Positions 5,021-55,860 of a DNA stretch of 64,000 bases are shown one piece after another (position 1 is the first letter of the stretch; each line of letters begins with the position of its first letter). The notes under the pieces are model-generated. The model did not search any database and was not told where the DNA came from. It saw only the letters and a program-made list of their open reading frames with translations. Origin of the DNA: an uncultured archaeon. GTDB lineage: Archaea > Altiarchaeota > Altiarchaeia > JAFGQM01. The position numbers and the translations under genes were made by a program. Location: assembly GCA_964619365.1 (NCBI GenBank), contig CAZUDQ010000002.1, positions 32,001 to 96,000 on the forward strand. The letters run 5' to 3'.

Positions 5021-6052
5021 ATGGCAAGTGATAAGAGTTCAGGATACGCTAAAATTCGCCCCCCAACTAGCCAATCGGCAGACAGGGCGCGCGATGATGC
5101 CAATAAGATTATAATCCAGGGTCAAAAGCGCCCGATAACTCCGATGCAGATATTCGCATCATTCCTTCTTGCCGTTGTCATATACCTCTTTTTCAATTAC
5201 AGTTATGGGTTTACAGTGGTAACTTCTGCCTCCATTGCCATACTTTTCCTCCTCCTTTGCATATTCTCCTTTAGTGCTGTAGTCTTCCTTGAGACTTATG
5301 AGCGCGCAGTCGTACAGAGATTCGGAAAGTATGACAGGACCGCAGGACCTGGATGGACCGTAATTATTCCCGGAGTCGAGATATACAATGTTGTAGATAT
5401 CAGAGTCAAGACTCTTGATCTTTTGGGTTATGAGGCGATAACAAAAGATAACATAAGGCTGTACCTTGATGTGGTTGTCTATGCAAAGATAATAGATTCC
5501 TTTAAAGCGGTTCTTGAAGTCAAGAACGTAAACACTGCAATTCTTACATTCCTTCGCTCAATTACAAGAGAAACTGTCGGTAACTTGACAGCCGAAGAAG
5601 TGATATCAAACATCGCCAAAGTCAACGAGCTTTTAATCGGCGAGCGCGATCGTTTGAAAAAAGAATGGGGAGTTGACTTAATTTCAGTCGAAATACAGGA
5701 GATAACCCTTCCTGCAGAAGTCCAAGACAGCATGCACGACCTGCGGGCAGCAGAATACCAAAGACAAGTTGTCGAGCAAAAGGCCTTTGCAAGAGAAGCA
5801 CTCATCAACGCTATTGGCCGCGCTGCATCAAAGCTTGATAATCCAGCCCTTTCATATATGTACCTTGAGGCTATGAAGCAGGTTGCAGATGGCAAAGCTA
5901 CAAAGTTAATCTTCCCGATGGAGTTAACTCGCCTTGCAGAGTCTGTATCAAAAAACTTTGGCGAGGACAAGGACAAATTCCTGGCTGATATGATGAAGGC
6001 TTATCAGGAGACTGTTGCTAAGGACATGCCAAGCAAGCTTCCTAAGAAATAA
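5021..6052 (+). CDS. SPFH/band-7 (stomatin/prohibitin) family protein
   Basis: YERAVVQRFG, GPGW, ITKDN and WGVDLISVEIQEI motifs. Confidence 0.9.
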   Translation: MASDKSSGYAKIRPPTSQSADRARDDANKIIIQGQKRPITPMQIFASFLLAVVIYLFFNYSYGFTVVTSASIAILFLLLCIFSFSAVVFLETYERAVVQRFGKYDRTAGPGWTVIIPGVEIYNVVDIRVKTLDLLGYEAITKDNIRLYLDVVVYAKIIDSFKAVLEVKNVNTAILTFLRSITRETVGNLTAEEVISNIAKVNELLIGERDRLKKEWGVDLISVEIQEITLPAEVQDSMHDLRAAEYQRQVVEQKAFAREALINAIGRAASKLDNPALSYMYLEAMKQVADGKATKLIFPMELTRLAESVSKNFGEDKDKFLADMMKAYQETVAKDMPSKLPKK

Positions 6053-6084
6053 GCTTTAGCTCTTTTAAGCTATTTTTCTCTTAT

Positions 6085-7026
6085 TTATTCTTCAAGGGCT
6101 AGTGCCAGCCCTGAGACCTCTTTTAGATCCACAAGCTTCCCTTCAGAAATGATTGGTACTGGGAGTAGTTTGTTTTCAGGAGCTTCCCTTAGACTCACAC
6201 CACGCGGAGTGTCTTTCCAAAGCCTGCGCTCATCAAGTGAGGCAAAGAGTTCTTTTGCTTTTTTAGATTGGCTGCACGCAAGATTCTTTAGCTCAAAGTC
6301 GCCCATCAAAAGGAGCTCATTTAACTCTATTTGACCTTTGAGCTCTGATATGGCCTCAATAAGCATGGCATCGGCGATTTTTACGGTGTGATGGAAGTAG
6401 ACAGCCGAATGCATCTGGCGCCGTCCGACAAGAAGAGCTTCAAGGGCAATCACCCCCTTTTTCTCAAAGGCAATGCCAGCATTATCCAGTCTCATAGCAC
6501 TTATTATCCTGTCAGTATCGATTATCCCGTAAGCAACGCCGGTATAAAGGGCATCGCGTAGGAGGTAATCCATACGGTCGGCATCAATGGATGAGCTTAT
6601 TATTGCGCCTTTGCCTTTCCCTGAAAGGAACGAATCAATCTCATTTAATGAAAATCCTGAATCCTTTATTGCATCACCCAGTTCCCCGTTTAGCAAGAGC
6701 TTTAGATTATCCTCATGGTTGCAGGAAAAAAGGTTTTCAAGGGAATGGCTAAAGGGGAGGTGTCCGGCATCGTGGATTAGAGCCGCCACTCTTGCAGGAG
6801 TCTCTTCAATCCCCACTTGCTCTGCCATTTTCCCAGCAAGGTGCATAGTCCCAAGGGAATGTTCAAATCTCGTGTGATTGGCACCCGGATAGACAAGAGA
6901 ACAGAAGGAAAGCTGCTTTATGCGCCTTAGCCTTTGCATCTGGGGCGTATCGATTATTGCAGTTTCCTCAGGGGACGCTGTGATGTCTTTATGAACTGGA
7001 TCCCTAATAATCTTTGGCCCTTCCAT
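6085..7026 (-). CDS. HD-domain phosphohydrolase (SAMHD1/YdhJ-like dNTPase family)
   Basis: IRDPVH, QRLRRIKQL, HTRFEHSLG, HDAGHLPFSH and DADRMDY motifs. Confidence 0.9.
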   Translation of the reverse strand: MEGPKIIRDPVHKDITASPEETAIIDTPQMQRLRRIKQLSFCSLVYPGANHTRFEHSLGTMHLAGKMAEQVGIEETPARVAALIHDAGHLPFSHSLENLFSCNHEDNLKLLLNGELGDAIKDSGFSLNEIDSFLSGKGKGAIISSSIDADRMDYLLRDALYTGVAYGIIDTDRIISAMRLDNAGIAFEKKGVIALEALLVGRRQMHSAVYFHHTVKIADAMLIEAISELKGQIELNELLLMGDFELKNLACSQSKKAKELFASLDERRLWKDTPRGVSLREAPENKLLPVPIISEGKLVDLKEVSGLALALEE

Positions 7027-7067
7027 TTTTATATTATTTTTATTACTGGAAACATAAATAGAAGACT

Positions 7068-7817
7068 ATGGTAAAGCTCACTCGTAAGAAAACTGGTATT
7101 GAAGGCCTCGACATGCTTCTTCCAAAAGGTGTGCCCTCGAATCATCTTATACTTGTTTCTGGACAGGCCGGTGCCGGAAAGTCCATAATGTCTATGCAAT
7201 TCCTTGTGGCAGGAGTTCAGGAACTGGGTGAGAAAGGACTTTTTATAAGTTTTGAGCAAACTCGCGATGATATCGTTGCACAAGCCGAAAACTTTAAATG
7301 GAATATGAACAAGTTAGAAAAAGAAGGCAAGATAAAGATAATGACATTCAATCCCAATAAAGACCATGTTCTAGATATGCTTAAACATATTGACGAAGTC
7401 ATAAAGACTTTTAAACCGGATCGCATAGTCGTTGATTCTATCACCACCTATTCCATATATGCTGAAACCCTGACCTTCTTTGACACCCTGATGAACTATG
7501 GTCTCAAAAAAGAGAACTTACACCTTGCACCCTCGCCAAGATCCGTATCGAGGAAGGCGATAACAGACATCCTCACAAAGATAAAATCCTATAATCTACT
7601 TGCATTTATAATCTCAGAACTCCCTGAAAACTCAGAATATCTCTCCCGCGACACGATTTCAGAGTTTTTTTGTGATGGCGTTATACTCTTAAAACATGTG
7701 CCAATAGGGGACTCTCTTAACCGGAGCATAGAAGTCAGGAAGATGAGGCAGGTGCGGATGCGTGAAGGCTCTCGTTCCTATAACATAACAAAAAAAGGAA
7801 TAGTTATCGAAATATAA
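7068..7817 (+). CDS. Single-domain KaiC/RecA-superfamily ATPase
   Basis: TGIEGLD, Walker A GQAGAGKS, SFEQ, VVDSI, DGVILL and KMR motifs. Confidence 0.9.
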   Translation: MVKLTRKKTGIEGLDMLLPKGVPSNHLILVSGQAGAGKSIMSMQFLVAGVQELGEKGLFISFEQTRDDIVAQAENFKWNMNKLEKEGKIKIMTFNPNKDHVLDMLKHIDEVIKTFKPDRIVVDSITTYSIYAETLTFFDTLMNYGLKKENLHLAPSPRSVSRKAITDILTKIKSYNLLAFIISELPENSEYLSRDTISEFFCDGVILLKHVPIGDSLNRSIEVRKMRQVRMREGSRSYNITKKGIVIEI

Positions 7818-7818
7818 T

Positions 7819-8946
7819 ATGGATGCCAAAGACAATGTCGTTCGGTTCTACATAAAAAATTATGTTATACCAAGAGCACTCATCTTTGATAAGCCCGGTT
7901 TTGTTGATTTCAGGATATCAGGCAAGACATCAGTATTTGCCCGCCAGATTCTTATGCCCGAAGACCTTTTTGTGGAGTTTGAAAAGTCTATGATTGATAA
8001 GTTCGGAGAGGCTGGCGCCCAGGCGGTTTATTCTGTTGGAAAACGCTTTGGATACAGCTTTGCACAACTGGGTCGTTTTGAGAACATAAAGGAGCACCCT
8101 GGCAACAAAGTCAAGAAATGGATTGGAATTGCCAGTAAATTCGTAGAAGGGACTTATGCAGGCAGGATAGACCAAAAGGTCTCTGTTGAAGAAAAAACAG
8201 TCGATTACAAGCTTAAAAATTTTGTTATCTGCCGGAAACTGGGCTATGATTACCTATTTGCCACAGGGGGAGCGGCAGGGGTGATAGCATGGCTACTTCA
8301 GGATCCGAAGATAGAAGGCTATATGTATAACAGTAAGTCAAAGGGCGAAGAAAATGTTTGCAATGTCTTGTGTGCGACGCCTGCAACAATAAAAAACAAA
8401 TTAAAACAGAACGCATATTCTGAAACAAAAGTAGGGGATTTATACCAAGACCCAATGCAATATGAGGCACTTAACAAAGAAGTCGAGATACAGCAGAAAA
8501 AATCATTCCAGACTTTCTTAGACGCCCGCATATTCAGTTATAAAAAAGGCATAATTTCTCATGATGATGAGCGTTTCTTCCTTCTTGAAGTCACTGGCAT
8601 GTATCTTTTAGAGCTTGCGATGAAAGATGAGAAAATGAAAAAGACTCTATTTGATTCTGCATTTTCCGTCGGGCAAAAAATGTTTGGAGATTCGAACATG
8701 GTGGGCATAACTGAATTTTTGGCTGCCCTTGGATGGGGCGAAGTTACTATAATACCCTCTTCTAATAAAATCAGGGTTGTAATAAAACATTTCCCCTGGA
8801 CAAGATATTACAAAGATGTAGAGTATCTTTTAATAAGAGGTCTCCTTTCAGGAATGCTTTCCCGCATAAAAAAGAAAGACATATTACTCAAAAAACCAAA
8901 AGCTGACCTCAATTCAGGTTTTTTAACACTCTTGTTCGAAAATTAA
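7819..8946 (+). CDS. Tandem V4R-like (hydrocarbon/small-ligand binding) domain protein
   Basis: Two similar halves (GAQAVYSVGKRFG...; KTLFDSAFSVGQKM...LAALGWG...RGLLSGML) resembling V4R folds. Confidence 0.6.
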   Translation: MDAKDNVVRFYIKNYVIPRALIFDKPGFVDFRISGKTSVFARQILMPEDLFVEFEKSMIDKFGEAGAQAVYSVGKRFGYSFAQLGRFENIKEHPGNKVKKWIGIASKFVEGTYAGRIDQKVSVEEKTVDYKLKNFVICRKLGYDYLFATGGAAGVIAWLLQDPKIEGYMYNSKSKGEENVCNVLCATPATIKNKLKQNAYSETKVGDLYQDPMQYEALNKEVEIQQKKSFQTFLDARIFSYKKGIISHDDERFFLLEVTGMYLLELAMKDEKMKKTLFDSAFSVGQKMFGDSNMVGITEFLAALGWGEVTIIPSSNKIRVVIKHFPWTRYYKDVEYLLIRGLLSGMLSRIKKKDILLKKPKADLNSGFLTLLFEN

Positions 8947-8966
8947 CCCGTATTAAAGGACAAATA

Positions 8967-9752
8967 ATGATAAGAATCGGCCCAGTCGAAAAGAAAGTCT
9001 ATGAGCTTAGGGCAGACCACCCCGTTGTAATCCCGCAGATAGACCCGAGTAGCCTTGAACTTGATAAAGTCAAATCTTTGCTTAAAGAGATTAAAGCCAT
9101 GGGCATTGATGTAGTTGCAATGGGTGGCAGCATAGTTGATAGGGATTCCTGCAACGAAGTAATTGATGTTGCCGTTAAAGACTTTGACCTTTCAGTTATC
9201 ACTTACCTAACTCAAACAGATCTTGCATCCCTAAATAATTATCCAGGTAAGACTGCAGTGTACTGGATGAGTGTACTGAATTCAGAGAATATGTTTTATC
9301 TAAGGGATGTTCTTGTGATGAGTTCAGTCATGCTTAAGAAAAAAGGTTCAGAAGCAATACCTACAGCATATGTTTTTGACGATCGCGGCCCGCTAAAGAC
9401 AGCAACTTGGCTTTCAAGAGCAACACACGTTCCGCGCGAAAAGCCCACAATAAGTTTATCTCTTGCCGTGCATGCTCAAAACTGCGGATTTAGATTTTAC
9501 ATAATGGCAGGAGGTTCAGGTGCAGAGATTCCACCTCCCGAATCCCACGTAGCTTTATTATCAAAAGAAACTGATTTGTTTATAATGCCTACAAGTGGAA
9601 TCAAAAATGTAAGCCACGCAGAAGATATGTTTAAAGCTAATGCGGATGCCATACACATAGGTAATCTTTTGGAGCAAAAAGATGGTATTGACCATTTGTC
9701 ACAGATAGTCAAAGCCTCAAAGAAATATCCTGGCAAGGACTTCTTGCCATAA
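8967..9752 (+). CDS. Divergent group II GGGP synthase/PcrB-family TIM-barrel prenyltransferase
   Basis: IDP, MGGS, MSVLNS, VPREKP, GSGA, GIK and ADAIHIGN align with GGGPS. The FPG, YLEAG and GGG motifs are altered. Confidence 0.8.
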   Translation: MIRIGPVEKKVYELRADHPVVIPQIDPSSLELDKVKSLLKEIKAMGIDVVAMGGSIVDRDSCNEVIDVAVKDFDLSVITYLTQTDLASLNNYPGKTAVYWMSVLNSENMFYLRDVLVMSSVMLKKKGSEAIPTAYVFDDRGPLKTATWLSRATHVPREKPTISLSLAVHAQNCGFRFYIMAGGSGAEIPPPESHVALLSKETDLFIMPTSGIKNVSHAEDMFKANADAIHIGNLLEQKDGIDHLSQIVKASKKYPGKDFLP

Positions 9753-9781
9753 TCCAAAAACACCCCCCAAAGCAAAATATT

Positions 9782-10507
9782 ATGGCCCACGAAGATAAGG
9801 ACCTAATCGAAAAAATCAAAGAACTGGACTATTTTATCTTTGATTTTGACGGAACATTATACCCCGGTCTTTTATTATCTGAACTCGTCTTTGATTTTTT
9901 AAAAGATTACGGCCTTAAGAATCCTAGCGAACAGTGGCGCTATGACGAGTTGGATTCAATATTCAAAAATCGTGACCTTTATTCTTTTGATGAGTTATGT
10001 AATCGCTCAGCCTTATTGCTTAAAGACGTAGAGCGCGATGAATTACTAAAAAAGCTACCTTTATTCATGGATAAGTGCTATCCCAGTAGTCTTGAACTCA
10101 TAGCCCTCCTTAGACAAATGGGTAAAAAATGTTTTTTAAGCTCCTTAACCATTAAAGAAATTGCATCGGCCGCAAAAGCCAAATATAGCTTTGACGGCTG
10201 TGTTTTTAGGGATTTGGACCAAGTCAAAGTAGATGGCAAAACTCTTTTTACAGGCAAGTACACCAAATCCAATTTGGATTTAGGTAATTATAAGATTGGA
10301 ACAATCGAGGCATTTGGACTCAAGTCCAAGAAATTTCTTATGGCAGGAAATGCTATAGAAGATAAGTGCCTACTCATAGAATCAGAAATCTCTGTAGGGG
10401 TAAATCCTCAAAAAGAACTTAAGGAGGGTATGGTCTTCGATGTCTTTTTAAGTGACCAAAAAGACCCATGGGAAACTCTGGTTGATAATCTTAAAAAAAG
10501 CCTTTAA
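9782..10507 (+). CDS. HAD-superfamily phosphatase (SerB/IB-like)
   Basis: FDFDGTL motif I, LFTGK, GNAIED motif IV variant and VGVNP. Confidence 0.75.
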   Translation: MAHEDKDLIEKIKELDYFIFDFDGTLYPGLLLSELVFDFLKDYGLKNPSEQWRYDELDSIFKNRDLYSFDELCNRSALLLKDVERDELLKKLPLFMDKCYPSSLELIALLRQMGKKCFLSSLTIKEIASAAKAKYSFDGCVFRDLDQVKVDGKTLFTGKYTKSNLDLGNYKIGTIEAFGLKSKKFLMAGNAIEDKCLLIESEISVGVNPQKELKEGMVFDVFLSDQKDPWETLVDNLKKSL

Positions 10508-11223
10508 ATATCTATTACAATACCCTTGCCTTTTTCTATGCGGAAATCAACTGGCTTTAGGTCATGGTCAGTTGCACGCATCTTTGTTATAATAAGTATC
10601 CTCTTATCAAGAGTCTCAATCTTTGAAAGGGCAATTACACCATCAACGACAAATTCTTCAACACCGTGGCGTGAATAGCCTTCTGTCCCAGATACTATTT
10701 CATCAAGAAGGAGTGATGTAAGTTCATTTTCCTGCAAGAGGTAATTAAGTTCGATTATCGCGTTTCTTACTTTGTTCTGGTCAGACTCAAGTAATACGTC
10801 AAGACTTGGAAGTGCGTCAACGACAACACGCTTTGCCCCGATGTTTCTTGCCGTCATAATAAGGTTCTGAACAAGGTGGTTAACATCAAAGTTTTCAGGT
10901 GAAAGAGTGAATTTTTCATCGGATTCAAGACCAAGGCGCACAAGGGAAGCATCGATTATTGCAATCTTGCCCTCTTTTTCAAGCTCAGTTATATCAAGAC
11001 CAAGTTCTTTTAATTCCGCACGGATGTTCTTTGGCTTTTCTTCAAGAGTGAGATATACTCCCGGTTCGCCGTTTTTTGCGCCGTGGATGAGATATGTCAT
11101 TGCAAGAATTGTTTTTCCACATCCACTGCCTCCTGCCAAAAGAACTGTGCGACCTCTGGGAATGCCGCCTTTAAGGAGCGTGTCAAGCTCTGCGATACCA
11201 GTCTCCGCTCGATTAACTGCCAT
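10504..11223 (-). CDS. Single-domain KaiC/RecA-superfamily ATPase
   Basis: TGIAELD, GGSGCGKT, TLEE, VVDAL, VEEFVVDGVI and KMR motifs. Confidence 0.9.
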   Translation of the reverse strand: MAVNRAETGIAELDTLLKGGIPRGRTVLLAGGSGCGKTILAMTYLIHGAKNGEPGVYLTLEEKPKNIRAELKELGLDITELEKEGKIAIIDASLVRLGLESDEKFTLSPENFDVNHLVQNLIMTARNIGAKRVVVDALPSLDVLLESDQNKVRNAIIELNYLLQENELTSLLLDEIVSGTEGYSRHGVEEFVVDGVIALSKIETLDKRILIITKMRATDHDLKPVDFRIEKGKGIVIDI

Positions 11224-11318
11224 TTTTGGGGTTGGTCATATTTTTAACCTCTTATATTAGTGTACGCAATATAAAAATCTTTTTATCGAAGAAACCTTCA
11301 AAGAATGCGAAAAATAAG

Positions 11319-12020
11319 ATGGATGGAGCAAAGATAGCAAAAAAAACCGCAGCAGACGCAGCATGCAAGAAAGTCACAGATGGGATGAATGTAGGACTTG
11401 GTACTGGTTCAACGGCCGAGTGGGCGATAAAACGCCTTGGGAGGATGATGCAAAGTGGCATTAAACTCACATGCGTCCCTTCTTCTATTGCAACCCAAAA
11501 GCTTGCAGAGGACTGTGGGCTTACAGTGATTCCTTTTGAAGAGTTCGTCAAAGCGCCCTTTGCTCTTGATGTCTGTATTGACGGGGCAGACAGGATAGAC
11601 CCATACTTCAGGCTGACAAAAGGGGGTGGAGGAGCTCACACCCGCGAAAAGCTTGTTGCAAAGAACGCTGAGCTTTTTTGTTGTGTTGGCGACCCTTCAA
11701 AACTCTGCGACTCCCTAATCGGGGCGTTCCCACTTCCAGTTGAAGTACAAATGGATGCTTTGGAGGACACAATTCTTGCACTTTCAGAGTATGGTGAACC
11801 CAGCCAGAGAATAAAGGGTGAAGCTGCGCTTATCACAGATAACAGCAATTACATTGTTGACCTCAAACTTTCAGAAGGAGACCCAAGCGCACTTGAGGAT
11901 GAGATTAATTCCATTCCAGGCGTTGTTGATAACGGTTTTTTTACAAAAAGACGCCCAGAACTGGTATTTATCGGCAAGAGCGACGGGTCATGTGATATCT
12001 TAGATTCTCCTGAAAAATAG
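11319..12020 (+). CDS. rpiA: Ribose-5-phosphate isomerase A
   Basis: GLGTGST, IDGAD, KGGGGAHTREK and IPGVVDNG motifs. ATG at 11319. Confidence 0.95.
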   Translation: MDGAKIAKKTAADAACKKVTDGMNVGLGTGSTAEWAIKRLGRMMQSGIKLTCVPSSIATQKLAEDCGLTVIPFEEFVKAPFALDVCIDGADRIDPYFRLTKGGGGAHTREKLVAKNAELFCCVGDPSKLCDSLIGAFPLPVEVQMDALEDTILALSEYGEPSQRIKGEAALITDNSNYIVDLKLSEGDPSALEDEINSIPGVVDNGFFTKRRPELVFIGKSDGSCDILDSPEK

Positions 12021-12081
12021 GGTTTCTAAACTAGCTTTTTTAAGGCTTCTACAGTAGTAATAAAAGGTATAATCCCTGTAA

Positions 12082-15000
12082 ATGGTCTCAAAAGTAGCAG
12101 TAGTGTTAAGCTTAGCAGTACTTATTATAGCTTTTGCATTCTCCCTTAGCATCTTAAGTCCATTTGAAGAAAGCTTCAACTCATTACAATCGCCCCAAGG
12201 CCTTGCGATAGGGAATGATGACCTATTCGAGTACTTTATTACACCCCCAGAGGCAAACGATACTGAAAACGAAACTGGTAATGGGGATGGACAAGCAGTA
12301 GAGCCAAAATCCGAGAGCGTTTTCCCGCAAATTGAGTTTGTCCCACCGACACCTGATAACGGAACAACTACAACTGACACAAATGCCAGTATAAACGTAA
12401 GCATTACTGAAGAGAATTTAGCCAATGTCAGCTTTAACTGGAGCGGAAGCGACTATTCCCTATATGATGATTCACTCGTCCTGATGATGAATTTTGACAA
12501 TATCAGCTCATTAGGCGAGAATTCAAGCTATGTTGTTGATATGAGTGAGTATGGCAATAACGGTACTGTCAATGGCTCAACCTGGACTTCAAATGGCAGG
12601 TATGGTGGAGCGTATGAATTTGATGGCAATGGTTATTTTATGAATTCAAGTTATATTGAGATTGCCGATTCAAATAGCTTAGATTTAGGAAATGAAATAA
12701 CAGTTTCTACATGGATTAAATTTTATGATTATAATTTTGGGCCATATATTATAACTAAAAGGGATTCTGGTGCTGCTGTAGATAATCATTATGGAATTTA
12801 TTTAAAAAATGAGACCGAAGGAGAAATGACCCCTAAATTTACATGCGGAAATGGGACTCATAGAAATAGTGTTTCTGCCTCTAATGGAAGATTATCCGAG
12901 TTAAATCATTGGTATCATCTTGTTGGAATAAAGGATGATGAATCAATTAGGATATATGTTGACGGTGAATTTGTTGGTTCCAACACTGAACTAAAAAATA
13001 GAAGTGGGGCTATTGTTGATAATGATACTATGGTTACTGGGTGGTCTAATGATGTTCCATTAAGACTTGGTGCATTATATTATTCAAGTCTTGGGGTAAG
13101 TAGATATGGTTTCAATGGTTCAATTGATGAAGTAAGGATCTATAACCAAAGTCTGTCTGCTAATGAAGTAAGATTATTATATGAGTCAAATCTAAAGAAA
13201 ATGGATCCTGATTCCTGGGAACTTTATGTTAACAAGACAAATTTAACTTCTGGAACATATCATTATGTGGCTACTGCTACTGATTCAAGCGGGAATAGCA
13301 ATAGTACGGAGATGAGGTTGTTGACCATTGATAATGTTGCAGATACTATTGCCCCCAATGTGTCAATTAGTTATCCTGTTGGGTATGGGGCTTATGTTAG
13401 TGTTGCATCATTTAATTATACTTCAAGTGAAGCGGGAAGCTGCTGGTATAGTTTGAATGATAGTTCTAATTCAACAGCAGTTGTTGCTAATAATAGTTTT
13501 GCTGGATTGAATTTAGAGGATGGAGATTATAATCTGACTATTTATTGTAATGATAGTTCTGGTAATGTAGGAAGTAATAATTTGAGTTTTGTTGTTGGAG
13601 ATTATTATGGTGCTGACGAAGTTAATAAGTTGTTGGCGAGTGATATTCAATTAAATGATGCTTTTGGTGCTTCTGTCTCAATTTCAGGAGATTATGCAAT
13701 TATAGGAGCCTCTAATGAAGATGAAGGAGGTAATGGTGCTGGTGCAGCCTATATTTTTAATAAAAATTCTAGTGGGACTTGGAATGAAATTCAAAAAATT
13801 CGTTCAAGTGATAATAAAGGCGGAGATACTTTTGGTACTTCTGTTTCAATTTCAGGAGATTATGCAATAGTTGGAGCATTTTATGAAGATAATTCTACTG
13901 GTTCTGTTTATGTTTTCAAGAAAAATTCTAGTGGATTGTTTGAGGAGGTAAGTGAATTAAGAGCAAGTGATGCACAAGAGGGACCTCGTTTTGGTCATTC
14001 AATTTCTCTTTCTGGTGATTGTGCAATACTTGGAGCCGTTTGGGATGATACTAATGGTAATCGTTCTGGTGCAGCTTATATATTTAAGAAAAATTCTAGT
14101 GGTGGTTTTGAGGAAGTTAATAAAATAATAGCTAGTGATGGACAAGCTTATGATTATTTTAGTAATTCAATTTCTCTTTCTGGTGATTATGCAATAGTTG
14201 GAGCATCTGGGGAAGATGCTAATGGTGCTGGTGCTGGTGCAGCTTATATATTTAAGAAAAATTCCACAGGACAATTTGAAGAAATTCAGAAGATTTTGTC
14301 AAGTGATATTGCAGGTGGTGATGCTTTTGGTAATTCAGTTTCAATTTCAGGAGATTATGCAATAGTAGGGGCTCTTACTGAAGATCCTGAATCACTTTAC
14401 AATGCTGGAGCAGCTTATATTTTTAAGAAGAATTCTAGTGGACAGTTTGAAGAAGTAGATAAAATTCAGGCAAGCGATAAAGAAACGATTGATAATTTTG
14501 GGCGGTCAGTTTCCATTAGTGGAGATTATGCAGTTGTTGGGTCTATTTATGAAGATACTGGTGGAAATAATTCTGGAGCAGCTTATATTTTTAAGAAGAA
14601 TAGTAGTAGTGGATTTGAAGAAATTCATAAAATTACTGCTAGTGATGGACAAGCTCATGATTATTTTAGTAATTCTATTTTTATTTCTGGAGAGTATGCA
14701 ATTGTTGGAGCAAGTAATGAGAATTCTTCTGGTGCTGCTTATATGTTTAGATTGAATGAGAGTGTTGCTGATACAACTGCCCCTTTGATTACATTTATCA
14801 CTGAGAATAATACCCAGATATATGCTTCAAGTATTTTGATTGAAGCTAATGTTACTGATGACAGCCAGACATATACGTTCCTGAATGATTCTTCCCTAGT
14901 TGGTTATTGGACTGCTGAGAATGGTGCTAATGACAGCTCTATATATAATAATAGTGGGAATTTTGTTAATGATACTTCAATCACTTCTTCAGGTAAGTTT

Positions 15001-18000
15001 GGAAGTGCATTCAGTTTTGATGGTAATGGTGATTATATAAATACTTCTATAGAGATTCCAGCCGAGAATTTTTCATTTTCCATGTGGTTCTATATGTTAG
15101 ATAATGCAACATCAAGAAATGCTTCTATTAATTTATTATCATCTGATGGGTTTGTGGTATATCAACATCCTGAAAATGATTTGATTTATTTTTATTCAGT
15201 TGGTGCAAGATATATTATTTGGTATCCAGAAATTAATAAGTGGCATCATTTAGCTTGTTCAATTAATTCTGCAGGGAATGCGATAGATAATTATGATGCT
15301 AATTGTTACGCTGATGGTATTTTAAGAAGCCTTAATCAGGATGGTTATTTAAATTCATCAACATATTTGAAGATTTCTTATTCTAGTGCTGCGAACCATT
15401 CTATTAATGGTTCTGTTGATGAATTTATGATTTTTAATAGGAGTTTGAGTTCAAGTGAGATTAGTGCACTATATAATGCAACTGCACAGAACTTCAATAC
15501 TACTGTTGATTTGGTTGTTGGAAATAATATAATTAATTTGGTTGCAAAAGATACTTATGCTAATGTTGTTAGTGAGCAAGTTGTTGTTGAGCGGACCCCT
15601 ACTGCATCTGAGAATGCGTTTGTTTCAACTTGGAATACTTCAGCTGTTTCAAATGTTTCAAGTAATGCATCACAAGTAATGTTGCCGTTAGAAGCTACGG
15701 GAAATTACGAGTTTACAGTTTATTGGGGAGATGGTACTGATGATTATATAACAACATATAATCAAGCAGAAGTAAATCATACTTATGCAACTGAAGGTCT
15801 TTATAATATCTCAATTGATGGAACAATTGTTGGTTGGAGATTTAATAATGTTGGAGATAAGTTGAAGATAACAGATATTTCCAATTGGGGAAGTTTGAAT
15901 GTGGGAAATAATAATGGTTATTTCTATGGTTGTGCTAATTTGGATGCAAGTGCGATTGATGCTTTGAATTTGAGTGGGACAACGATTTTGACCTCTATGT
16001 TTAGAAATAGTAGTTTTAATGGGAGTATTGGTAATTGGGATACTTCTAGTGTTACAAATACTGACTGGATGTTTTTCTACGCTAGTAATTTTAACCAAAA
16101 CATAAGTGATTGGAATACTTCTAAGGTTACAAATATGTTTTATATGTTGGGTGGTGCAAGTAGTTTTAATCAACCAGTAAATACATGGGATGTTTCTAGT
16201 GTTACTAATATGGGATATATGTTTTCTTATATGGATTCATTTAACCAAGACATAAGCAACTGGGATGTTTCTTCTGTTACTTCCATGTATCGTATGTTTC
16301 TTAATGCTGACAATTTTAATCAACCTTTAGATAATTGGGATACATCTAGTGTTACTGATATGGAAAGGATGTTTCAGAATGCAGATAGTTTCAACCAAGA
16401 TATTGGAAGTTGGGATACATCAAAGGTTACTAATATGAATTCTATGTTCTATGGTGCTTTAAACTTTAATCAGCCATTAAATAATTGGGATACTTCTAGT
16501 GTTACGTCTATGAACTATATGTTTAGAGATGGTAATTTGTTTAATCAAAATATTAGTAATTGGAATGTTTCTAATGTAGAATACATGGATTATATGTTTT
16601 ATTCTTGTCCATCTTTTGATCAAAATATTGGTAGTTGGAATGTTTCTAATGTAATAAATATGGATAATATGTTTAATGGTTCAACTCTATCTACTGAAAA
16701 CTATGATGATTTATTATCTGGTTGGTCAAATTTACATAGTTTGCAAGAAAATATTGAATTTCATGCTGGTAATTCAACTTATACAAATTCCGCAGCTAAG
16801 GCCATATTAATTGATAATTATAATTGGACTATTACTGATGGAGGATATTTGGATATAGTTGTTCCCAATATTACATTTATCACTGAGAATAATACCCAGA
16901 CATCCGCTTCAAGTATTTTGATTGAAGCTAATGTTACTGATGACAGCCAGACATATACGTTCCTGAATGATTCTTCCCTAGTTGGTTATTGGACTGCTGA
17001 GAATGGTGCTAATGACAGCTCTATATACAATAATAATGGAACATTTAATGGTAATGCTTCTGTTACAAGTTCTGGTAAGTTTGGCAGTGCATTTGAGTTT
17101 GATGGTGATGGGGATTACATTGAATCATCTGAAAATGGCTCACTAAATATTGGTAGAGATCAACTTACAATTTCTTCTTGGGTTAAATTAAATAATTTTA
17201 TAGATGGCCGTAGTTTTATTGTTGAAAGGAGATTTGAAACTGCCGACCTATACAGCTTATACGTACAGAATAATTCTGCCATTAGTTTTAATATGGAACG
17301 GGGACCTTCACCAACAGGTATTATTAGTAATCCAGATATTTTTTCACTTAACGAATGGCATCATATTTTAGGAACTTATGATGGCGCATCAATTAAAATT
17401 TATTTAGATGGTAGTCTAATTCAGGAAAATTCATCCTCTGGAAATATTGATAATAGTTCAGGAACTTTCAGAATAGGTACAAATGATGGAGCTAGATTTT
17501 GGAATGGTTCTATCGATGAAGTAATGGTTTTCAATCGTTCGTTATCTTCTTCAGAAGTTAAAGCATTATACAATGCAACTGCACAGGACTTTAATGCTAC
17601 TGTTGATTTGGTTTCCGGTAATAATTCTGTTCAGTTGGTTGCTGTTGATACTGAATATAATGTTGCTAGGGAAAGTATTAATGTTGAGAGAAATGATAGT
17701 ACTGCTCCTTCAATTACATTTATAACAGCTAATAATACCCAGACATCCGCTTCAAGTATTTTGATTGAAGCTAATGTTACTGATGACAGCCAGACATATA
17801 CGTTCCTGAATGATTCTTCATTAGTTGCTTATTGGACTGCTGAGAATGGTGCTAATGACAGCTCTATATATAATAATAGTGGAACATTTAATGGTAATGC
17901 TTCTGTTACAAGTTCTGGCAAGTTTGGAAGTGCATTTGAGTTTGATGGTGATGGGGATTATGTGGATGTTGGAAATTCACAAACATTAAATCAAGCGACT

Positions 18001-21000
18001 CTTTCCTTATGGTTTTATAGAAATTCAAGTAAAGATAATTTTCAAATGATGTATACTGGCTATTCCCTTTCAGAGTTAGAATTATCTTTCTATATAGATA
18101 CTCTAAGAGCTTATGTGAATAATAGTTATGTTTTCTATAATAATGCTTATTCATTAAATACTTGGTTTCATGCAGTTTTAACTTTTAATTCAACTAATCA
18201 AACACTTTATGTAAATGGTGTTCCAGTTGCAAGCAGAATTCCAATTGGAGTTGTGTCTGCATCTGCCAAAACTATTGGTGGAAGGAAATGGAATTATTCC
18301 TTTAATGGTTCTATTGATGAGGTTATGATTTTTAATAGGAGTTTGAGTGCTAATGAAGTTAGTGCTTTGTATAATGCAACTGCTCAAAACTTCAATACTA
18401 CTGTTGATTTGGTTTATGGTGATAATGCTGTTCAGTTAGTTGCTGTTGATACTGAGTATAATGTTGCCAGAGAAAGTATCAATATTGATAGGATAGTATA
18501 TAATATCACAAATTGTGTTGAGTTGCAGGCAATGGGTTATAATTTGTCAGGAAATTATGTGTTGGCGAATAATATTGATTGTTCTGATACTGCTAATTGG
18601 AATAGTGGTGCTGGTTTTGATCCAATCGGTGATTCGTCAAATTATTTTACAGGTGGTCTTGATGGACAAGGATATAATATAAGTTATCTTTACATAAATC
18701 GTTCTGATGTGGGTTATGGAGGACTTTTTGGATATGTTAGTTCTGGTGAGATAAATAATTTAGGTTTGATTTCGGTTAATGTTACAGGGTTTAATCAGAC
18801 AGGTGCTTTTGCTGGCTGGTTCGGGGGCTCAGTAATAAATAATTCTTATGTTACTGGGAGTGTTTTTGGAGGGGTAACTGCTGTTGGTGGATTTTTTGGA
18901 ATAATACATAGTTCAACAATTTTAAATTCTTATTCAATAGTTGATGTAAGTGGTGTTCATGATCATATAGGAGGTCTTGCAGGACAAATGATTGGTTCAG
19001 TTGTTAATAATTCTTATGTGAATGGAAACATAAAGGGGAGTAGTACATATATTGGTGGAATTGGAGGTAGTTTATGGGATGCAACAATTTCAAATTCCTA
19101 TTTTGTCGGAAATGTTACTGGAACCAATTTAGTGGGTGGTATAGTTGGGGGAATGATTGGCATTGGTAGTTCAACCAAGAACTGTTATTCTACTGGCAAT
19201 ATAACTGTTACTGGTGGAAGTGGAGTTGGAGCTATTACGGGATACTTGAATGGTGCAGGAGAGACTATCATAAATTCATACTGGTTGAATAATACTGGAG
19301 ATGATGTAGTTTCTTGTTATCCTGGAGGGAATGAGAATTGTACTGCGGTGACAAGTGAAATTTATTTCTTTTCGGTTTCGAATTCTCCTATTTCAGCATG
19401 GCAGTTCCCGCCGTGGGATTCTTTTTGTGATGGAGTAGGATACCAACCATTGGCATGGCAAAATATATCAACTGAGACAGAATGTTTGGGATATTCTACA
19501 ATAACACCACAGATTAGTTTTGTGAACCCTACTCCCGATAATGGAACAAATACTACTAATAATTCTGTTGAGATTAATGTTTCCATTACTGAAGAGAATT
19601 TAGCCAATGTCAGCTTCGACTGGGCACTAGGTCCAAGAGATGGACTTGTTCTTGATTTGAATTTTGATGATGGGAGTTTGGTTGATGAATCAGGGCAGGG
19701 GAATGATGGAGTAAATAATGGTTCTATCTATACTCCAGATGGAAAGATTATGGGTGCTAGAGAATTTGATGGTGAAAATGATTATGTTAATGCTGGAAAT
19801 GATACATCTTTAGATATAAGAGATCAAATAACTTTAGGAGCTTGGATTAAGTTAAATGAATTAACTAATAATTCAGCCGTAAACATTATTTTAAATAAAG
19901 ATTGGGCTGATTATGAAATTGGAATTGCAGCTAATTCTACTGGAGTATCAGTTTATAACTTTGCGTGGTATTTAGGTGGTGTTTCATCTGGATGGCATGA
20001 TGGTGGAGGACCAATTAATATAAATGAATGGACCTCTGTTATGTTAACGTATAATGGTGAACAAGTTAGAACTTATATTAATGGAGTATTAACTAATAGC
20101 TATGAATATAATGGAAGTATTTATTATCCTGGACTTGATTGTGATTTGAAGATAGGAGCAAGATCACGGCCAGACTCCTGTGAGGAGAGTGGAAGTTATT
20201 TCAACGGTTCTATTGATGAAGTAAAAGTATATAATCGGTCGTTAAGTTCTACTGAGATTACTGAGTTGTATCATTCTAGTAGGGCTAAATTTATGGATGA
20301 TAGTTTAGTTTTGATGATGAATTTTGACAATATCAGCTCATTAGGCGAGAATTCAAGCTATGTTGTTGACATGAGTGAGTACGGGAATGATGGCGTCGTT
20401 AATGGTTCTACTTGGACCCCAAATGGTAATTATGGCGGAGCTTATGAGTTTGATGGAGAGAATGATTATATTAACCTGACATCGGCTGTCTTGGAAACAA
20501 CTAATGATTCTCATGAGATTACTTTGCTTGCATGGATAAAACCTAATGATTATGGTGATCCTGATTCAAATCAAAGCTATATTATTAGCCAATATATATA
20601 TCCTAATAGTGACAGATTCTTATGGGGATTCGATGGTAAGAAGATAAGATATTTTGTTGGAGGAAATCAGAGTTTAGGAAATACGAATATTACATTAGGA
20701 GTTTGGCAGATGATTGCTTCAACTAAGTTATCTAATGGTACAGTCAAGCATTATTATAATGGAATATATGATGGTAAAGGTGTTGTGCAAGGAAAGTATC
20801 AAGATACAGAGACAATCATAGGTGGTGGACATGTATACGCTGGTGTTTATGCATTCAATGGTTTAATTGATGAACCAAGGATTTATAATAGAAGTCTTAG
20901 CGCAAATGAAATTCAGTTATTATACGAGTCAAATCTAAAGAAAATTGATCCTGATTCCTGGGAACTTTATGTTAATAAGACTAATTTAACCGTTGGAGAC

Positions 21001-24000
21001 TATTCTTATTCTGCAAGCGCATGTGATTCGAGCGATAATTGCAACTCAACTGAAACAAGATACCTAACTATTGAATCAGAATACGCACCTACATTCCAAG
21101 GCAATCTTGACTTAAATAACGACGGATATCTGGACATAGTTTTCTCTAACTGGAGAAATGAAACGTCTTACAACATCAATAGTACCATATACTATGGTAG
21201 CGCAACTGGATTTAGGATAAATGATACTGGTGAACTTCCTACAATGGGGGCAGTTGGTAATTCCATTGCCGACTTAAATAACGACGGATACTTAGACATA
21301 GTTTTCTCTAACTGGAAAAATGATAGCACCTATAACATAAACAGCACCATCTATTACGGAACCGTTGCAGGATTTGATGCCGATAACAAGGCTGAACTGC
21401 CCACTCACGGCGCACAAGGGAACTCCATTGCCGACCTGAACAATGATGGTTATTTAGACGTAGTTTTCTCTAATTATTTCAATGGGGTATCTTACGACAT
21501 CAACAGCACCATCTATTATGGGAGCGCAACAGGATTTGGTACCAACAACACCAAGGGCCTGCCAACAAACCACGCAATAGGAAATTCCATTGCCGACCTG
21601 AATAACGACGGATACTTTGACATAGTGTTTTCCAACTCTGGCGAGTCAAGTGTTATATATTACGGAAGCGCAACAGGATTTGATGCTGATAATAAAACAG
21701 AGTTATTAACCCATGCCGCGACTGGAAATTCCATTGCCGACCTAGATAATGACGGGTACCTGGATATTGTGTTTTCCAATAATGGCGAAGGTGGGGACCG
21801 CAACATCAACAGTACGATCTACTACGGAAGCGCTGCAGGATTTGATGCCAACAATACGAAAGGATTACTAACACACGGAGCATATACAAATTCCATTGCC
21901 GACTTAAATAACGACGGATACCTAGATATCATATTCTCAAATTATCATAATAACACAGGTCGCAACATCAACAGTACGGTGTATTATGGGGGTGTTAGCG
22001 GGTTTAACATTAACAACAAAACAGAGTTACCAACACACGGAGCAAATGGCAATTCTGTTGCTGACCTAAACAACGACGGATACTTAGACATAGTGTTTTC
22101 CAACACATATAACGATACTGATTTTAACATCAACAGCACCATCTATTACGGAAGTGTAACAGGATTTAACACCAACAATACTGGGGGCTTACCTACAATA
22201 GGTGCTTCGGGGGTTTCAGTTGTCGTCGGACAAGTAGCTTCAGCAAATACGGCATATGGGACGACGCTTGGCGCAACGCTGATTCCTGATTTTAGGTTGG
22301 CAAAGAACTCCAGTTTAAGCGATTTTATTGACCTTGACATATTCTTCAACGATAAGAATGGGGACGAACTTACGATTTTGGCATACAAAGATGGCGCACT
22401 TTACTCTGACTCAAGCGTGCAGCTGCTTATCGATAATACAACACACAAATTAAGTATAATCCCTGCCACAGATTATGCTGGGACAATAACTGGCATCTAT
22501 TTTGTCGCAAGCGATGGGCAGTACAATGTCAGCAGTAACAATGTAAGTGTGATTGTGCTAGGTAATGACACCCAGGCGCCACAAATCGACTTCGTCCCGC
22601 CGACGCCCGATAACGGGACTGTCACAGCAAATACCTCAGTACTGATAAACGTCAGCATCAACGATACAGGCCTTGCAAACGTCACATTTGACTGGAACGA
22701 CAGCGAAGAAGTCTGTTCAATATACTCCCAGGACATAAGCAATTACTCTTGCACCGATTATCATGACTCTTCTTTGGTTCTTGCTATGAACTTTGATAAT
22801 TCAAGTGACCTAACGGATTTATCGGGTCATGGAAATGACGGAATCAATAACGGAGCTACATGGACTCCTGATGGGAAGTATGGCGGAGCAAGAAGCTTTG
22901 ATGGGTTAAATGATTCCGTCTACATCGATTCTTTTGACATTGGAAATTCAATTGGAAAAACAAGTTGTGCATGGATATATCCATTATCTTTTAGAGTAAA
23001 TAGTCTAATCGGAATCATAGCAGGGCCAAGCAGTTATACTGTTAATGTCCCCTGGATGAGATTATATAATGGTTACATGTTTAATAGAATTTGGAATAGT
23101 ACTCATGCGTTTAGCAAGGAATACTCATCTATAGAAGCTCTGAAACTTAATTCTTGGTCGCATCTTTGTGTGGTTTGGCAAGGCAATGGTCCAAATCAAA
23201 ATTTAAGTATGCTTTATTACATCAATGGAGGTCTTGATAAGAACATTACTTCAAACATAAAAGATACGGATGGATATGTCGGAATGGCTTATGGGGATGT
23301 CAGAATAGGTTCTGATCCCGTATATGCTTCGAGATTTTTCAATGGTTCTATCGATGAGATTAGAATTTACAACAGGATGTTATCCTCTGATGAAATTAAC
23401 TTATTATATGAATCCAGGTTAGTAAAGTATTCTGATTGGAACCTTCTAGTAAATAAAACTAATTTATCGGTTGGCAACTATACTTATTCTGCAAGCGCTT
23501 GCGACATTTATAATAATTGCAATTCTACGGGAATTAATACTCTTGAAATAATTTCTACAAGCTTCACAGCAGGTTTTAGCGTGACCCCTTCAAGCATCTC
23601 GGAAACAGGAACTGCAATATGGAATTTAACGCTAAACAATCTTGAGACATCAAACCTCACTGTGGAAATCTCACCCTCTTGGACATCAGCATATAATACG
23701 ACTGTAAGCGTTCTTTCAAACTACTCGCGTGCGTGGAGCCAGGGCGTTTCCTGCCCGACAACATCAGTCACAAGAAGCGTCACTTTGACCGAGGGTAGCT
23801 CGTCAAAACAAAAATCAGCGATAGTATCAGTCTCCTGCCCCTCATCAACTTGCTCAAAAGACTGGTCATGCGGAGAATGGAGCGAATGTGTTGATGGGGC
23901 ACAGACGCGTGACTGTTCTTGCGCGTGCCCAAAAGACTCACAGTGCAATGGCGACCACGCAACAGAACAAGAATGCGACGCGTGCGAGGGTGTGACCTGC

Positions 24001-51659: not shown

Positions 51660-52349
51660 ATGGTTTCAAAAAACATAGACAGGGTTTCTACAGGGGTAAA
51701 AGGACTTGACGAACTAATTGAAGGTGGAGTGCCAAAAGGGTCTGTTATACTAGTATCAGGAGCGCCTGGTGCCGGGAAGACAATCTTAGGGATGCAGTTC
51801 CTCGAAGCGGGTCTGAAAAAAGGGACAAAATGCGCTTATGTCACAATCGAAGAGCGCCCGGAAAAGATTGTTGAACAAGCCGAGCAGTTCGGGTTTTTCA
51901 AAAAAGCTCCTGAGATGCTTTCAGCAAAAGATGTTAAATACGATATCGGCTGGAAAAAACCTGACGCGATAGAAGAGAAGATAAAACTTGTCCTTGAGAA
52001 ATTAAAGCAAAAGAAGGTAGAACTTGTCGTAATCGATTCAATCAGCTCGCTTTCACTTGAGGATGGAATCCTTGCTAGAAGGTTATCGCGCCAGCTTATT
52101 GAAGGACTATACAACATTGGGGTTACTGCAATGATTACTGGGGAAGCCTTAGACGGGGATTATCCTGATGCAGTGACGCCGTTTTTGGTGGACGGAGTTA
52201 TCTTAATAAAAAAGATCGAAGCATTAGACAAAAGATCGATAAGCGTGTCAAAGATGAGACAGACTTCAATGACTCTAAAACCACAAACCTTGTCGATAAA
52301 GAAAGGAACAGGTCTTATTGTAGAGAAAGAAATGAAGCAAATTTTGTAA
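51660..52349 (+). CDS. Single-domain KaiC/RecA-superfamily ATPase
   Basis: STGVKGLD, GAPGAGKT, TIEE, VIDSI, DGVI and KMR motifs. Confidence 0.9.
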   Translation: MVSKNIDRVSTGVKGLDELIEGGVPKGSVILVSGAPGAGKTILGMQFLEAGLKKGTKCAYVTIEERPEKIVEQAEQFGFFKKAPEMLSAKDVKYDIGWKKPDAIEEKIKLVLEKLKQKKVELVVIDSISSLSLEDGILARRLSRQLIEGLYNIGVTAMITGEALDGDYPDAVTPFLVDGVILIKKIEALDKRSISVSKMRQTSMTLKPQTLSIKKGTGLIVEKEMKQIL

Positions 52350-52392
52350 GATATATAGTTTAATAAAACACATTCCACGATATCCCCTTAAA

Positions 52393-54654: not shown

Positions 54655-54659
54655 TACAA

Positions 54660-55826: not shown

Positions 55827-55860
55827 ATCTATTTATACAATCCTAGACTAAAAATACATT

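Follow-up and report, generated by a model that had tools for sequence, protein, structure and literature searches.

A conserved archaeal gene cassette joining a KaiC-like ATPase, a putative V4R relative and an altered member of the GGGPS/PcrB family

The DNA analyzed here, which we call the window, is a stretch of 64,000 nucleotides (nt) on contig CAZUDQ010000002.1 of an uncultured member of the Altiarchaeota (GCA_964619365.1, an assembly of 1.2 Mb that is 85% complete). Our subject is a group of five genes at positions 7068–11223. An earlier note, made from the letters alone, had described there four tightly packed, co-oriented genes closed by a convergent second KaiC-like gene. The open reading frames (ORFs) are found exactly as described: four genes on the + strand make up a unit from 7068 to 10507, separated in the ORF listing by 1, 20 and 29 nt, and the last of them overlaps the convergent fifth gene tail to tail by 4 nt. 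Proteins were named using the Pfam and NCBIfam cut-offs, with the following result.

7068–7817, + strand: KaiC1 gene, 249 amino acids (aa); PF06745, 181.8 bits.
7819–8946, + strand: gene for a 375-aa protein, X375; no Pfam or NCBIfam match at E ≤ 0.01.
8967–9752, + strand: PcrB-like gene, 261 aa; PF01884, 61.4 bits (cut-off 23.9) over residues 24–249.
9782–10507, + strand: HAD gene, 241 aa; PF00702, 24.5 bits (cut-off 26.4).
10504–11223, − strand: KaiC2 gene, 239 aa, convergent; PF06745, 222.6 bits.

These scans agree with the identities first given to the genes, as KaiC-like ATPases, a member of the family of PcrB and geranylgeranylglyceryl phosphate synthase (GGGPS), and a HAD protein, this last by way of orthologues that score above the cut-offs.

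How well is this arrangement kept in other archaea? Below, G000 denotes the source genome, other G numbers the genomes compared and L numbers the loci compared. The cassette survey covers the 61 genomes of the phylum, 3 of which hold the PcrB-like gene, together with 7 further loci on genome contigs and 24 metagenome loci that were examined with custom hidden Markov models. The window and G001, which is of the same genus, both have the order KaiC, X375, PcrB-like, HAD, and so do 6 of 6 full-length genome-contig loci and most of the 24 metagenome loci. The X375 gene adjoins the PcrB-like gene in G000, G001 and G016. Among the 25 loci whose sequence extends upstream for over 300 nt, it lies directly upstream of the PcrB-like gene in 24, the exception (L098) having a HAD fragment in that place. 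On the other side, 28 loci extend for 300 nt or more downstream of the PcrB-like gene, and 24 of these have a HAD gene there within 1.25 kb, directly adjoining in 20. Of the four loci that have no such gene, L089 and L091 end inside an intervening gene, the HAD that L097 carries there belongs to another subfamily, and L096 has none within 5 kb. KaiC stands directly upstream of X375 in all 8 genome-derived full loci. A strict count gives 12 of 15, where two of the misses (L080 and L094) are artefacts of the distance rule, KaiC being directly upstream in both, and the third (L097) has a relative of geranylgeranyl reductase (GGR) upstream of X375 and a convergent KaiC downstream. The linkage with KaiC, V4R-like and HAD partners, for which the earlier note had suggested a neighbourhood survey, is therefore conserved.

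The genes of the cassette often overlap, by 4–20 nt, and the genes that flank it vary from locus to locus. A fifth gene, whose product is a GGR-related FAD enzyme some 350 aa long (203–233 bits with NF008519), lies next to the PcrB-like gene in 10 of 33 loci; the cassette of the window itself does not have it. The simplest alternative to a functional unit is chance adjacency of unrelated genes, which would reflect nothing more than the dense packing of a small genome. We give it hardly any credence: the order is kept at 43–63% protein identity while the flanks change, and with 3 prenyltransferase genes in 1.2 Mb one expects by chance a prenyltransferase within 4 kb in about 2% of cases, as compared with the 31 of 39 described below. 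The closest relative of the window's cassette is the one in G016 (L030/L075), which belongs to another family of the class (X375 63–64% identical, PcrB-like protein 57%), and the cassette of the same-genus G001 (L031) is more distant (55–56% and 51%). There are hints here that the unit from KaiC1 to HAD is mobile, and that the whole cassette may have been transferred laterally. We also observe, beside several PcrB-type cassettes (L076, L078, L079, L080 and L096), a recurrent family of 226–317-aa proteins with no Pfam match; its copies in L096 and one of those in L076 resemble, by eye, winged-helix regulators.

The pair formed by KaiC and X375 extends beyond the PcrB-type cassette. The class to which the source genome belongs holds 15 further loci with a distant X375 (29–35% identity), and in 12 of them a gene of the UbiA family, another kind of prenyltransferase, lies beside X375. 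Relatives of GGR, transporters of the major facilitator superfamily (MFS) and FilR1-type winged helix-turn-helix (wHTH) regulators are also found near these UbiA-type loci. The other three loci have a UbiE-like methyltransferase in one case, a BacA polyprenyl-diphosphate phosphatase nearby in another, and nothing comparable in the third. All four of the UbiA proteins tested match PF01040 (62–105 bits) and fall far under all equivalog cut-offs, including that of digeranylgeranylglyceryl phosphate (DGGGP) synthase. The four GGR relatives tested score 128–157 bits with TIGR02032 against a cut-off of 158.8, and they are far under the equivalog cut-off of digeranylgeranylglycerophospholipid (DGGGPL) reductase. 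At one locus (L039, on contig 66 of G056) two tandem X375 genes follow KaiC, and a gene for a BacA undecaprenyl-diphosphate phosphatase lies about 240 nt away on the opposite strand.

On a wider scale, 7 UbiA-type X375 proteins used as queries against 185,579 species genomes gave 74 archaeal loci, a count from which we excluded three Bacillaceae loci (L196–L198) with matches of 41–42 residues and E-values from 6e-5 to 1e-4. By the labels in the record titles, these loci are Thermoplasmat- (22), Micrarchae- (16), Aenigma- (10), Altiarchae- (7), Iainarchae- (3) and others. A KaiC is found at 64 of the 74, a UbiA at 47, a PcrB-like gene at 9 and a GGR relative at 23. Of these loci, 39 have flanks of 1.5 kb or more on either side; KaiC is present in 39 of 39 and a prenyltransferase in 31. 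Thus KaiC and X375 form the constant core, and the usual neighbour is a prenyltransferase of either of two unrelated folds. Since UbiA and PcrB neighbours both recur, the pair is tied to prenyl chemistry, whichever of the two families is present. In a tree of X375 proteins, from which fragments shorter than 330 aa were excluded, 18 PcrB-linked proteins lie on one side of a long branch (length 1.32; support 100 in the Shimodaira–Hasegawa-like approximate likelihood ratio test, SH-aLRT). There is therefore one deep split in X375, and the swap of prenyltransferase type goes with it. One record of the scan titled as a Spirochaetes bacterium (L147) carries a cluster of archaeal type (UbiA, UbiA, GGR relative, X375, KaiC) and is probably a mis-binned archaeal contig.

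Our preferred reading, to which we assign a probability of roughly 0.55, is that DPANN archaea of the Iainarchaeota/Micrarchaeota type carry the cassette as a conserved operon, in which a KaiC-like ATPase and its fixed V4R-like partner that probably binds a hydrophobic ligand would be coupled to a dedicated prenyl-lipid pathway. The evidence for each of its parts comes from the individual proteins, to which we now turn.

The PcrB-like protein matches PF01884 over the whole TIM barrel and falls under every cut-off for GGGPS in NCBIfam (NF003198, 143.5 against 247 bits; TIGR01769, 96.6 against 161.55; TIGR01768, 88.3 against 113.25). The nearest solved structures are group II GGGPS, 4mm1 (88.5 bits) and 5ndy, at 88–89 bits. 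A homology search among 5.8 billion proteins gives 97 matches at E ≤ 1e-10, and these separate cleanly: 92 clusters at 43–100% identity, and the other 5 at 24–28%. In a tree that sampled 25 of the 87 members of this clade together with 28 canonical copies from the same class, the 25 clade members all lie on one side of a branch with SH-aLRT support of 100. The genome has a second gene of the family, on contig 3 (PF01884, 142.9 bits; 30% identical to the copy in the window). Because that one is a canonical-type GGGPS, the window copy is a paralogue and not the sole GGGPS of the genome, a possibility that would have weakened the original proposal. G000, G001 and G016 each hold both a PcrB-like and a canonical-type gene, and the paralogue occurs in these 3 of the 61 genomes of the phylum.

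The residues of the active site can be compared column by column, for the 87 clade members and the 28 canonical sequences. In GGGPS, according to PMC9385802, Asp25 and possibly Ser54 of the Mt enzyme are ligands of the Mg-diphosphate; Tyr134, Tyr178 and Glu180, there called "strictly conserved", serve in the specificity for glycerol-1-phosphate (G1P) and in catalysis; and the phosphate of G1P is held by standard phosphate-binding loops. In the clade, the counterparts of Asp25 (D26 in the window protein) and Ser54 (S/T55) are retained in 87 of 87, and the window protein has G53-G54-S55 on this Mg/diphosphate side. Y135 is also retained in 87 of 87. On the other hand, Tyr178 has become Ile in 85 of 87 (I179 in the window) and Glu180 has become Ala in 79 and Gly in 8, that is, in all 87 (A181), such that the window protein has I179-M180-A181 in place of the Y-L-E of GGGPS. 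The G-G-G loop of GGGPS is changed to T-S-G (T209-S210-G211) in 84–87 of 87, and the G183-S184-G185 loop and G232 are retained. Six polar or aromatic positions are newly conserved (Q24, D138, R140, W148, H194 and H230), invariant in 38 aligned members and present in 83–87 of the 87 overall. Among these, W148 aligns with a Trp that differs between the PDB entries 4mm1 and 5nf1 and that probably acts as the hexamer's aromatic anchor. With its Mg/diphosphate residues retained and the Tyr and Glu that serve G1P replaced, the clade has a predicted active site in which the donor side is preserved and the acceptor side is rebuilt. The epithet "altered", given to this enzyme at first sight, thus applies to the entire clade. 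As a side observation, the "canonical" GGGPS of the source genome (L001:1432–2208, contig 3 of G000) has L-T-D where other GGGPS have Y-L-E, and so do 3 further copies of the 28 in the class (the family-f1 copies): the "strictly conserved" Tyr is absent, and the Glu is an Asp.

Could the PcrB-like protein still be an ordinary isozyme of membrane-lipid synthesis, making GGGP or a longer homologue that the HAD protein turns into prenylglycerol, while KaiC and the V4R-like protein regulate lipid supply? Its membership in the PcrB family and its best PDB matches, the group II GGGPS just mentioned, point in this direction. So do the Bacillales, in which the PcrB product is dephosphorylated according to PMC9179154, and the partners found in other archaea, UbiA and GGR relatives, which come from the families that build archaeol. 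We find this improbable nonetheless. The Tyr and Glu used for G1P are replaced across the whole clade; the UbiA and GGR relatives of the cassettes are far from the cut-offs of the archaeol enzymes; and the genome keeps other members of these families elsewhere. Besides the GGGPS on contig 3, it has one UbiA (131.7 bits), a canonical geranylgeranyl reductase (240.9 bits) along with further GGR genes, a polyprenyl synthase (237 bits) and a weak match of the G1P-dehydrogenase type. With polyprenyl synthase, UbiA and GGR genes present, the genome can also supply a prenyl donor.

A different way of explaining the substitutions is that the protein is a pseudoenzyme, catalytically dead, whose task would be to bring a phosphorylated ligand, or else a prenyl diphosphate, to the pair of V4R-like protein and KaiC, with HAD as the only enzyme of the cassette. 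The proposed catalytic Glu is indeed lost, and all NCBIfam cut-offs for GGGPS are missed. However, the Asp and Ser that bind Mg and diphosphate are invariant, and the six new positions are invariant or nearly so, which is typical of a re-tooled active site. Moreover, MoeO5 shows that this fold can take another phosphorylated acceptor, and the presence of a GGR relative next to the PcrB-like gene in 10 of 33 loci also counts against this reading. We regard a dead enzyme as distinctly improbable. A remodelled, active prenyltransferase, as our preferred reading has it, agrees better with these residues.

The neighbour of that enzyme, HAD, is predicted to be a divergent phosphatase of the HAD-IB type. 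Motif I reads D21-x-D23-G24 and motif IV G-N-x-x-E-D194, and D21, D23, G24 and D194 are invariant in 9 orthologues. Five orthologues that were scanned all pass PF12710 (36–58 bits, cut-off 27). Four of these five also pass PF00702 with 31.6–41.1 bits, L077 being at 26.0, and the one tested with TIGR01490 passes it (113.6 against 98.3).

KaiC1 is a single-domain member of the RecA superfamily, with a Walker A motif G32-x2-G35-x-G37-K38-S39 and D123 as the Walker B Asp. Residues G32, G35, G37, K38 and D123 are invariant in 17 KaiCs of these modules. It differs from circadian KaiC in having one domain of 249 aa as opposed to two in tandem (about 500 aa), and in scoring 128 bits with NF006799 against 408. 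It belongs to a clade (SH-aLRT 99) of 6 KaiCs that lie directly upstream of PcrB-type X375 genes.

For X375 the evidence is more remote. A profile of 18 homologues matches the phenol-sensor domain of MopR (5kbe) with an E-value of 7.7e-6, the only solved family that it matches. The match comes in two pieces: MopR residues 15–65 align where the second half of X375 begins, and residues 157–201 where its first half ends. As a predicted V4R/Bet3-like, soluble protein, X375 can be divided as follows.

Residues ~1–195 of X375: lobe 1.
Residues ~205–375 of X375: lobe 2.

With the Pfam V4R model (PF02830), seven of the 10 relatives of X375 that match, scanned singly, score 14–23 bits, and the match is confined to the Cys-rich end of lobe 1. 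A model of X375 in the ESM Atlas, to be taken as a lead only, has a predicted template-modelling (pTM) score of 0.85, and its structural neighbours include clusters in which 86–100% of the members have V4R, with a TM score of 0.57 over 294 residues. Lobe 1 has two conserved pairs of glycines spaced as GxxxG (G74/G78 and G150/G154) and lobe 2 has one (G341/G345); paired glycines mark the helices of V4R and Bet3 domains (PMC2253512). The same source holds that the ligands of V4R domains are hydrophobic and that these domains signal in cis or in trans; they are related to Bet3 of the TRAPP vesicle-tethering complex. In the UbiA-linked X375 proteins, a cluster of three Cys residues is invariant (49 of 49 at each position), and the cluster is shared with V4R domains of the PoxR/MopR type, as described by Galperin et al. 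Uniform and small, the family has 400 representatives at E ≤ 0.001 out of 1.84 billion, with lengths almost always near 370 aa. Of 74 family matches at the JGI, all of them 216–389 aa long, 5 are labelled "predicted hydrocarbon binding protein"; no fused forms of 701–2000 aa were found, which is weak evidence. Taken together, these observations suggest that X375 is a two-lobed remote relative of V4R, not a member by the Pfam criterion, and that it probably binds a hydrophobic ligand.

The same observations lend themselves to another arrangement, in which the pair is a machine for handing off lipids. X375 would be a carrier or chaperone for the prenyl donor, the acceptor or the product, and a KaiC hexamer would load or unload it, or would extract a membrane lipid at the expense of ATP, as for example in lipid salvage by a host-dependent DPANN archaeon. 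The constant presence of both genes in the full-flank loci suits this, as does their spacing, 1 nt apart or overlapping, which is what one sees for the subunits of one complex. X375 is found with the membrane-embedded UbiA and with the soluble PcrB-like enzyme, as a shuttle between membrane and cytosol would be; it has no fused output domain among the 74 matches, with the caveat just given; and Bet3, to which V4R is related, belongs to a vesicle-tethering complex. On the other hand, lipid extraction is not known for KaiC-like ATPases, and the FilR1-type wHTH regulators that recur at X375 loci are more in keeping with signalling. Finally, 8 of the 39 full-flank loci have KaiC and X375 and no prenyltransferase within 4 kb, so a sensor pair fits better than an obligatory subunit of the enzyme. 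We consider the hand-off of lipids unlikely.

Several observations weigh against our own reading, of a KaiC and V4R-like pair coupled to a dedicated prenyl-lipid pathway, and the eight loci with no prenyltransferase nearby are the first of them. The loci are not independent: L083 is the same as L076, and several others come from related metagenomes. The X375 protein of the window has no match to Pfam V4R at E ≤ 0.01, and PF02830 matches 10 of 18 relatives at E ≤ 1 with all scores under the cut-off of 31. The two halves of the protein align in register but weakly (hhalign P of 0.06, probability 0.9%), and in the PcrB-linked proteins the Cys cluster is degenerate, position 172 never being Cys and C138 and C181 each being present in 20 of 26. 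The window HAD is itself under the cut-offs, by little for PF00702 and by far for TIGR01490 (21.5 against 98.3), and the first Asp of its motif IV is replaced by Asn, the residue that 4 of 9 have at this position. Finally, with the catalytic Glu lost in the PcrB-like clade, an inactive protein, or one that is not a prenyltransferase, is conceivable. The earlier description of the 375-aa protein as a tandem V4R has to be tempered in the same way: its remote homology to the MopR domain speaks for it, but the Pfam cut-off for V4R is missed, and "tandem" goes no further than that remote homology.

With these reservations, the cassette may work as follows. The PcrB-like enzyme would ionise a polyprenyl diphosphate and prenylate with it an acceptor that is phosphorylated but is not G1P. 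Ionisation of the donor should be retained because the Mg/diphosphate residues are kept, and the acceptor should not be handled like G1P because substitutions affect the Tyr and Glu by which GGGPS holds and activates it, with most of the phosphate-binding loops kept. The HAD-IB phosphatase would next strip the phosphate from the prenylated product, and where the GGR relative is present, in about one third of the related cassettes, it would saturate the chain. X375 would bind the lipid or the prenyl donor and set the ATPase state of KaiC, or the reverse, and in this way the pathway would be both sensed and controlled. We infer the steps of prenyl transfer, dephosphorylation and saturation from the residues and from family knowledge, and the ligand binding of X375 and its coupling to KaiC from gene order alone; the chemistry, the ligand, the protein contacts and the direction of control all have this inferred character. 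A lipid that acts as a signal, one that is an intermediate sensed in a feedback loop, and one that is the cargo of an ATP-driven carrier all fit the same data.

The first of these three is close to what the earlier note had in mind, a circuit of the autoinducer or lipid second-messenger kind in which the V4R protein would sense the product and relay it to KaiC. In its full form, the PcrB-like enzyme and HAD would make a dedicated prenylated amphiphile, X375 would be its receptor and KaiC the relay, giving a self-contained circuit for a lipid signal; and pairs of KaiC and double V4R proteins across Thermoplasmatota and DPANN would be receptors for the prenyl lipids that UbiA or PcrB enzymes encoded beside them produce. 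We hold this only tentatively, as a rather doubtful extension of the preferred reading. If true, archaea would have a synthase-receptor system for signalling by lipids, which DPANN cells might use in their dealings with hosts.

The more general reading, an operon that couples a KaiC and V4R-like pair to a dedicated prenyl-lipid pathway, would already have consequences. Archaeal KaiC-like ATPases are numerous and, to our knowledge, almost entirely uncharacterised, and we know of no ligands assigned to stand-alone V4R proteins. Gene order in dozens of genomes, together with the two prenyltransferase families, suggests a concrete and testable class of ligands for a KaiC-linked sensor. DPANN archaea are thought to depend on their hosts for lipids, and a dedicated and controlled prenyl-lipid pathway in them would bear on how their membranes are built or sensed. 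The PcrB-like clade would define a third functional type in the GGGPS/PcrB family, and the product of its enzyme is probably a lipid so far undescribed. In the literature that we searched, no GGGPS paralogue lacking the catalytic Glu was found described for DPANN, and the accessible part of Coleman et al. (2019) mentions only the two classical GGGPS groups. Neither did we find KaiC, V4R and prenyltransferases joined in the literature, in agreement with the earlier note, which knew of no described system of this composition; an earlier mention of a KaiC–V4R neighbourhood is possible.

The convergent KaiC2 has a different standing from the four genes it adjoins. It is present in the window where it was first described, but the role of a conserved closing element does not hold, since a KaiC2-type gene in the convergent position is found elsewhere only in the same-genus G001. 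KaiC2 is peripheral and lies outside the conserved cassette. In the tree, its group (SH-aLRT 97) takes in the convergent KaiC of G001 and a KaiC in G002, a sister genus. By this grouping the G002 protein is an orthologue of KaiC2; it heads a UbiA-type module that lies near an orthologue of the HD-domain gene of the window. KaiC2 may belong to a resident module of the UbiA type, or be a remnant of one. The locus in G002 (L043, on contig 80) is syntenic with the window, with the HD-domain gene 56% identical and the KaiC 67% identical to KaiC2; after that KaiC come a UbiA-type X375, UbiA, FilR1-type regulators and an MFS transporter. A second KaiC is common upstream of the cassette, as seen in L075, L076, L083 and L096.

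The surroundings of the five genes in the window are as follows.

6085–7026, − strand: HD-domain gene, flanking and divergent from KaiC1.
7027..7067, no strand: AT-rich intergenic spacer of 41 nt between the divergent HD-domain gene and KaiC1.
11226–12020, + strand: ribose-5-phosphate isomerase gene, on the other flank.

The spacer is likely to be a promoter region shared by the HD-domain gene and KaiC1, and by direct reading of the sequence it contains a TATA-like TTTATATTATTTTTATTA some 25–40 nt 5′ of the ATG of KaiC1. A scan of positions 6000–12500 with Rfam at gathering scores found no RNA family. The stretch occurs in metagenome runs from salt lakes, and no RNA run is among the sequencing runs listed as carrying it.

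Further along the window, at 51660–56664, we observe a second KaiC module. It starts with a KaiC-like ATPase (51660–52349) that groups with the KaiCs preceding UbiA-type X375 genes in sister genera, followed by two ORFs of 195 aa (membrane-looking) and 126 aa and by the gene for a 442-aa protein with a FIST domain (53326–54654). Downstream of the FIST gene are a convergent gene of the GGR family (54660–55826) and a UbiE-like methyltransferase (55861–56664). The 195-aa and 126-aa ORFs (52393–53333) were tested as remnants of X375, and this was rejected. Beyond the cassette itself, a 4275-aa ORF at 12082–24909 has low GC content (0.32–0.38), is highly repetitive with many N-x-S/T sequons, and has a hydrophobic tail at its end, so that it looks like a giant surface protein.

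Several known systems come close to parts of the cassette. In Bacillales, PcrB is a heptaprenylglyceryl phosphate synthase whose product is dephosphorylated and then acetylated by YvoF. The likeness is that an enzyme of the PcrB/GGGPS family gives a prenyl ether phosphate that later loses its phosphate (PMC9179154). The differences are that in the PcrB-like protein the residues that hold G1P are replaced, that the gene for the putative phosphatase is next door, that the cassette has no acetyltransferase, and that a KaiC and V4R-like pair always precedes the enzyme. MoeO5, an enzyme from the biosynthesis of moenomycin, belongs to the same family of TIM-barrel prenyltransferases and takes 3-phosphoglycerate as its acceptor, according to PMC9385802. 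It is a precedent for a change of acceptor within the PcrB/GGGPS fold. It is not a close relative, as no MoeO5 chain is among the 7 PDB matches of the PcrB-like protein at E ≤ 0.001, and it works in a bacterial antibiotic pathway with neither a KaiC nor a V4R partner.

With respect to the sensor pair, regulators of the XylR, DmpR, MopR and PoxR type have a V4R sensor fused to an ATPase in one polypeptide. They share with the cassette the combination of a V4R-type module for a small hydrophobic ligand and a P-loop ATPase, and with the UbiA-linked X375 proteins the Cys cluster. In the cassette, however, the pair is encoded by two genes, the ATPase is a RecA-type, KaiC-like protein and not a sigma-54 AAA+ ATPase, and X375 is a stand-alone archaeal protein with two V4R-like lobes and no DNA-binding domain. 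The synthesis of the bacteriochlorophyll tail brings together BchG/ChlG of the UbiA family, the geranylgeranyl reductase BchP/ChlP and the V4R protein BchJ. The UbiA, GGR and V4R families thus occur together there as well, and the UbiA and GGR proteins of the cassettes give sub-threshold matches to ChlG/BchG and BchP-ChlP. All these scores are far under the cut-offs, there are no pigment genes at the cassettes, and KaiC is added. Finally, Makarova, Galperin and Koonin reportedly proposed in 2017 that KaiC-like ATPases are signalling hubs of archaea; a single-domain KaiC-like ATPase beside a protein with a sensor domain is what we find here, and the window holds a second such pair, KaiC with FIST. 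The cassette is thus composed of known kinds, a module of KaiC plus sensor and a PcrB-type pathway with dephosphorylation, in a composition that is unusual for how specific and how well conserved it is.

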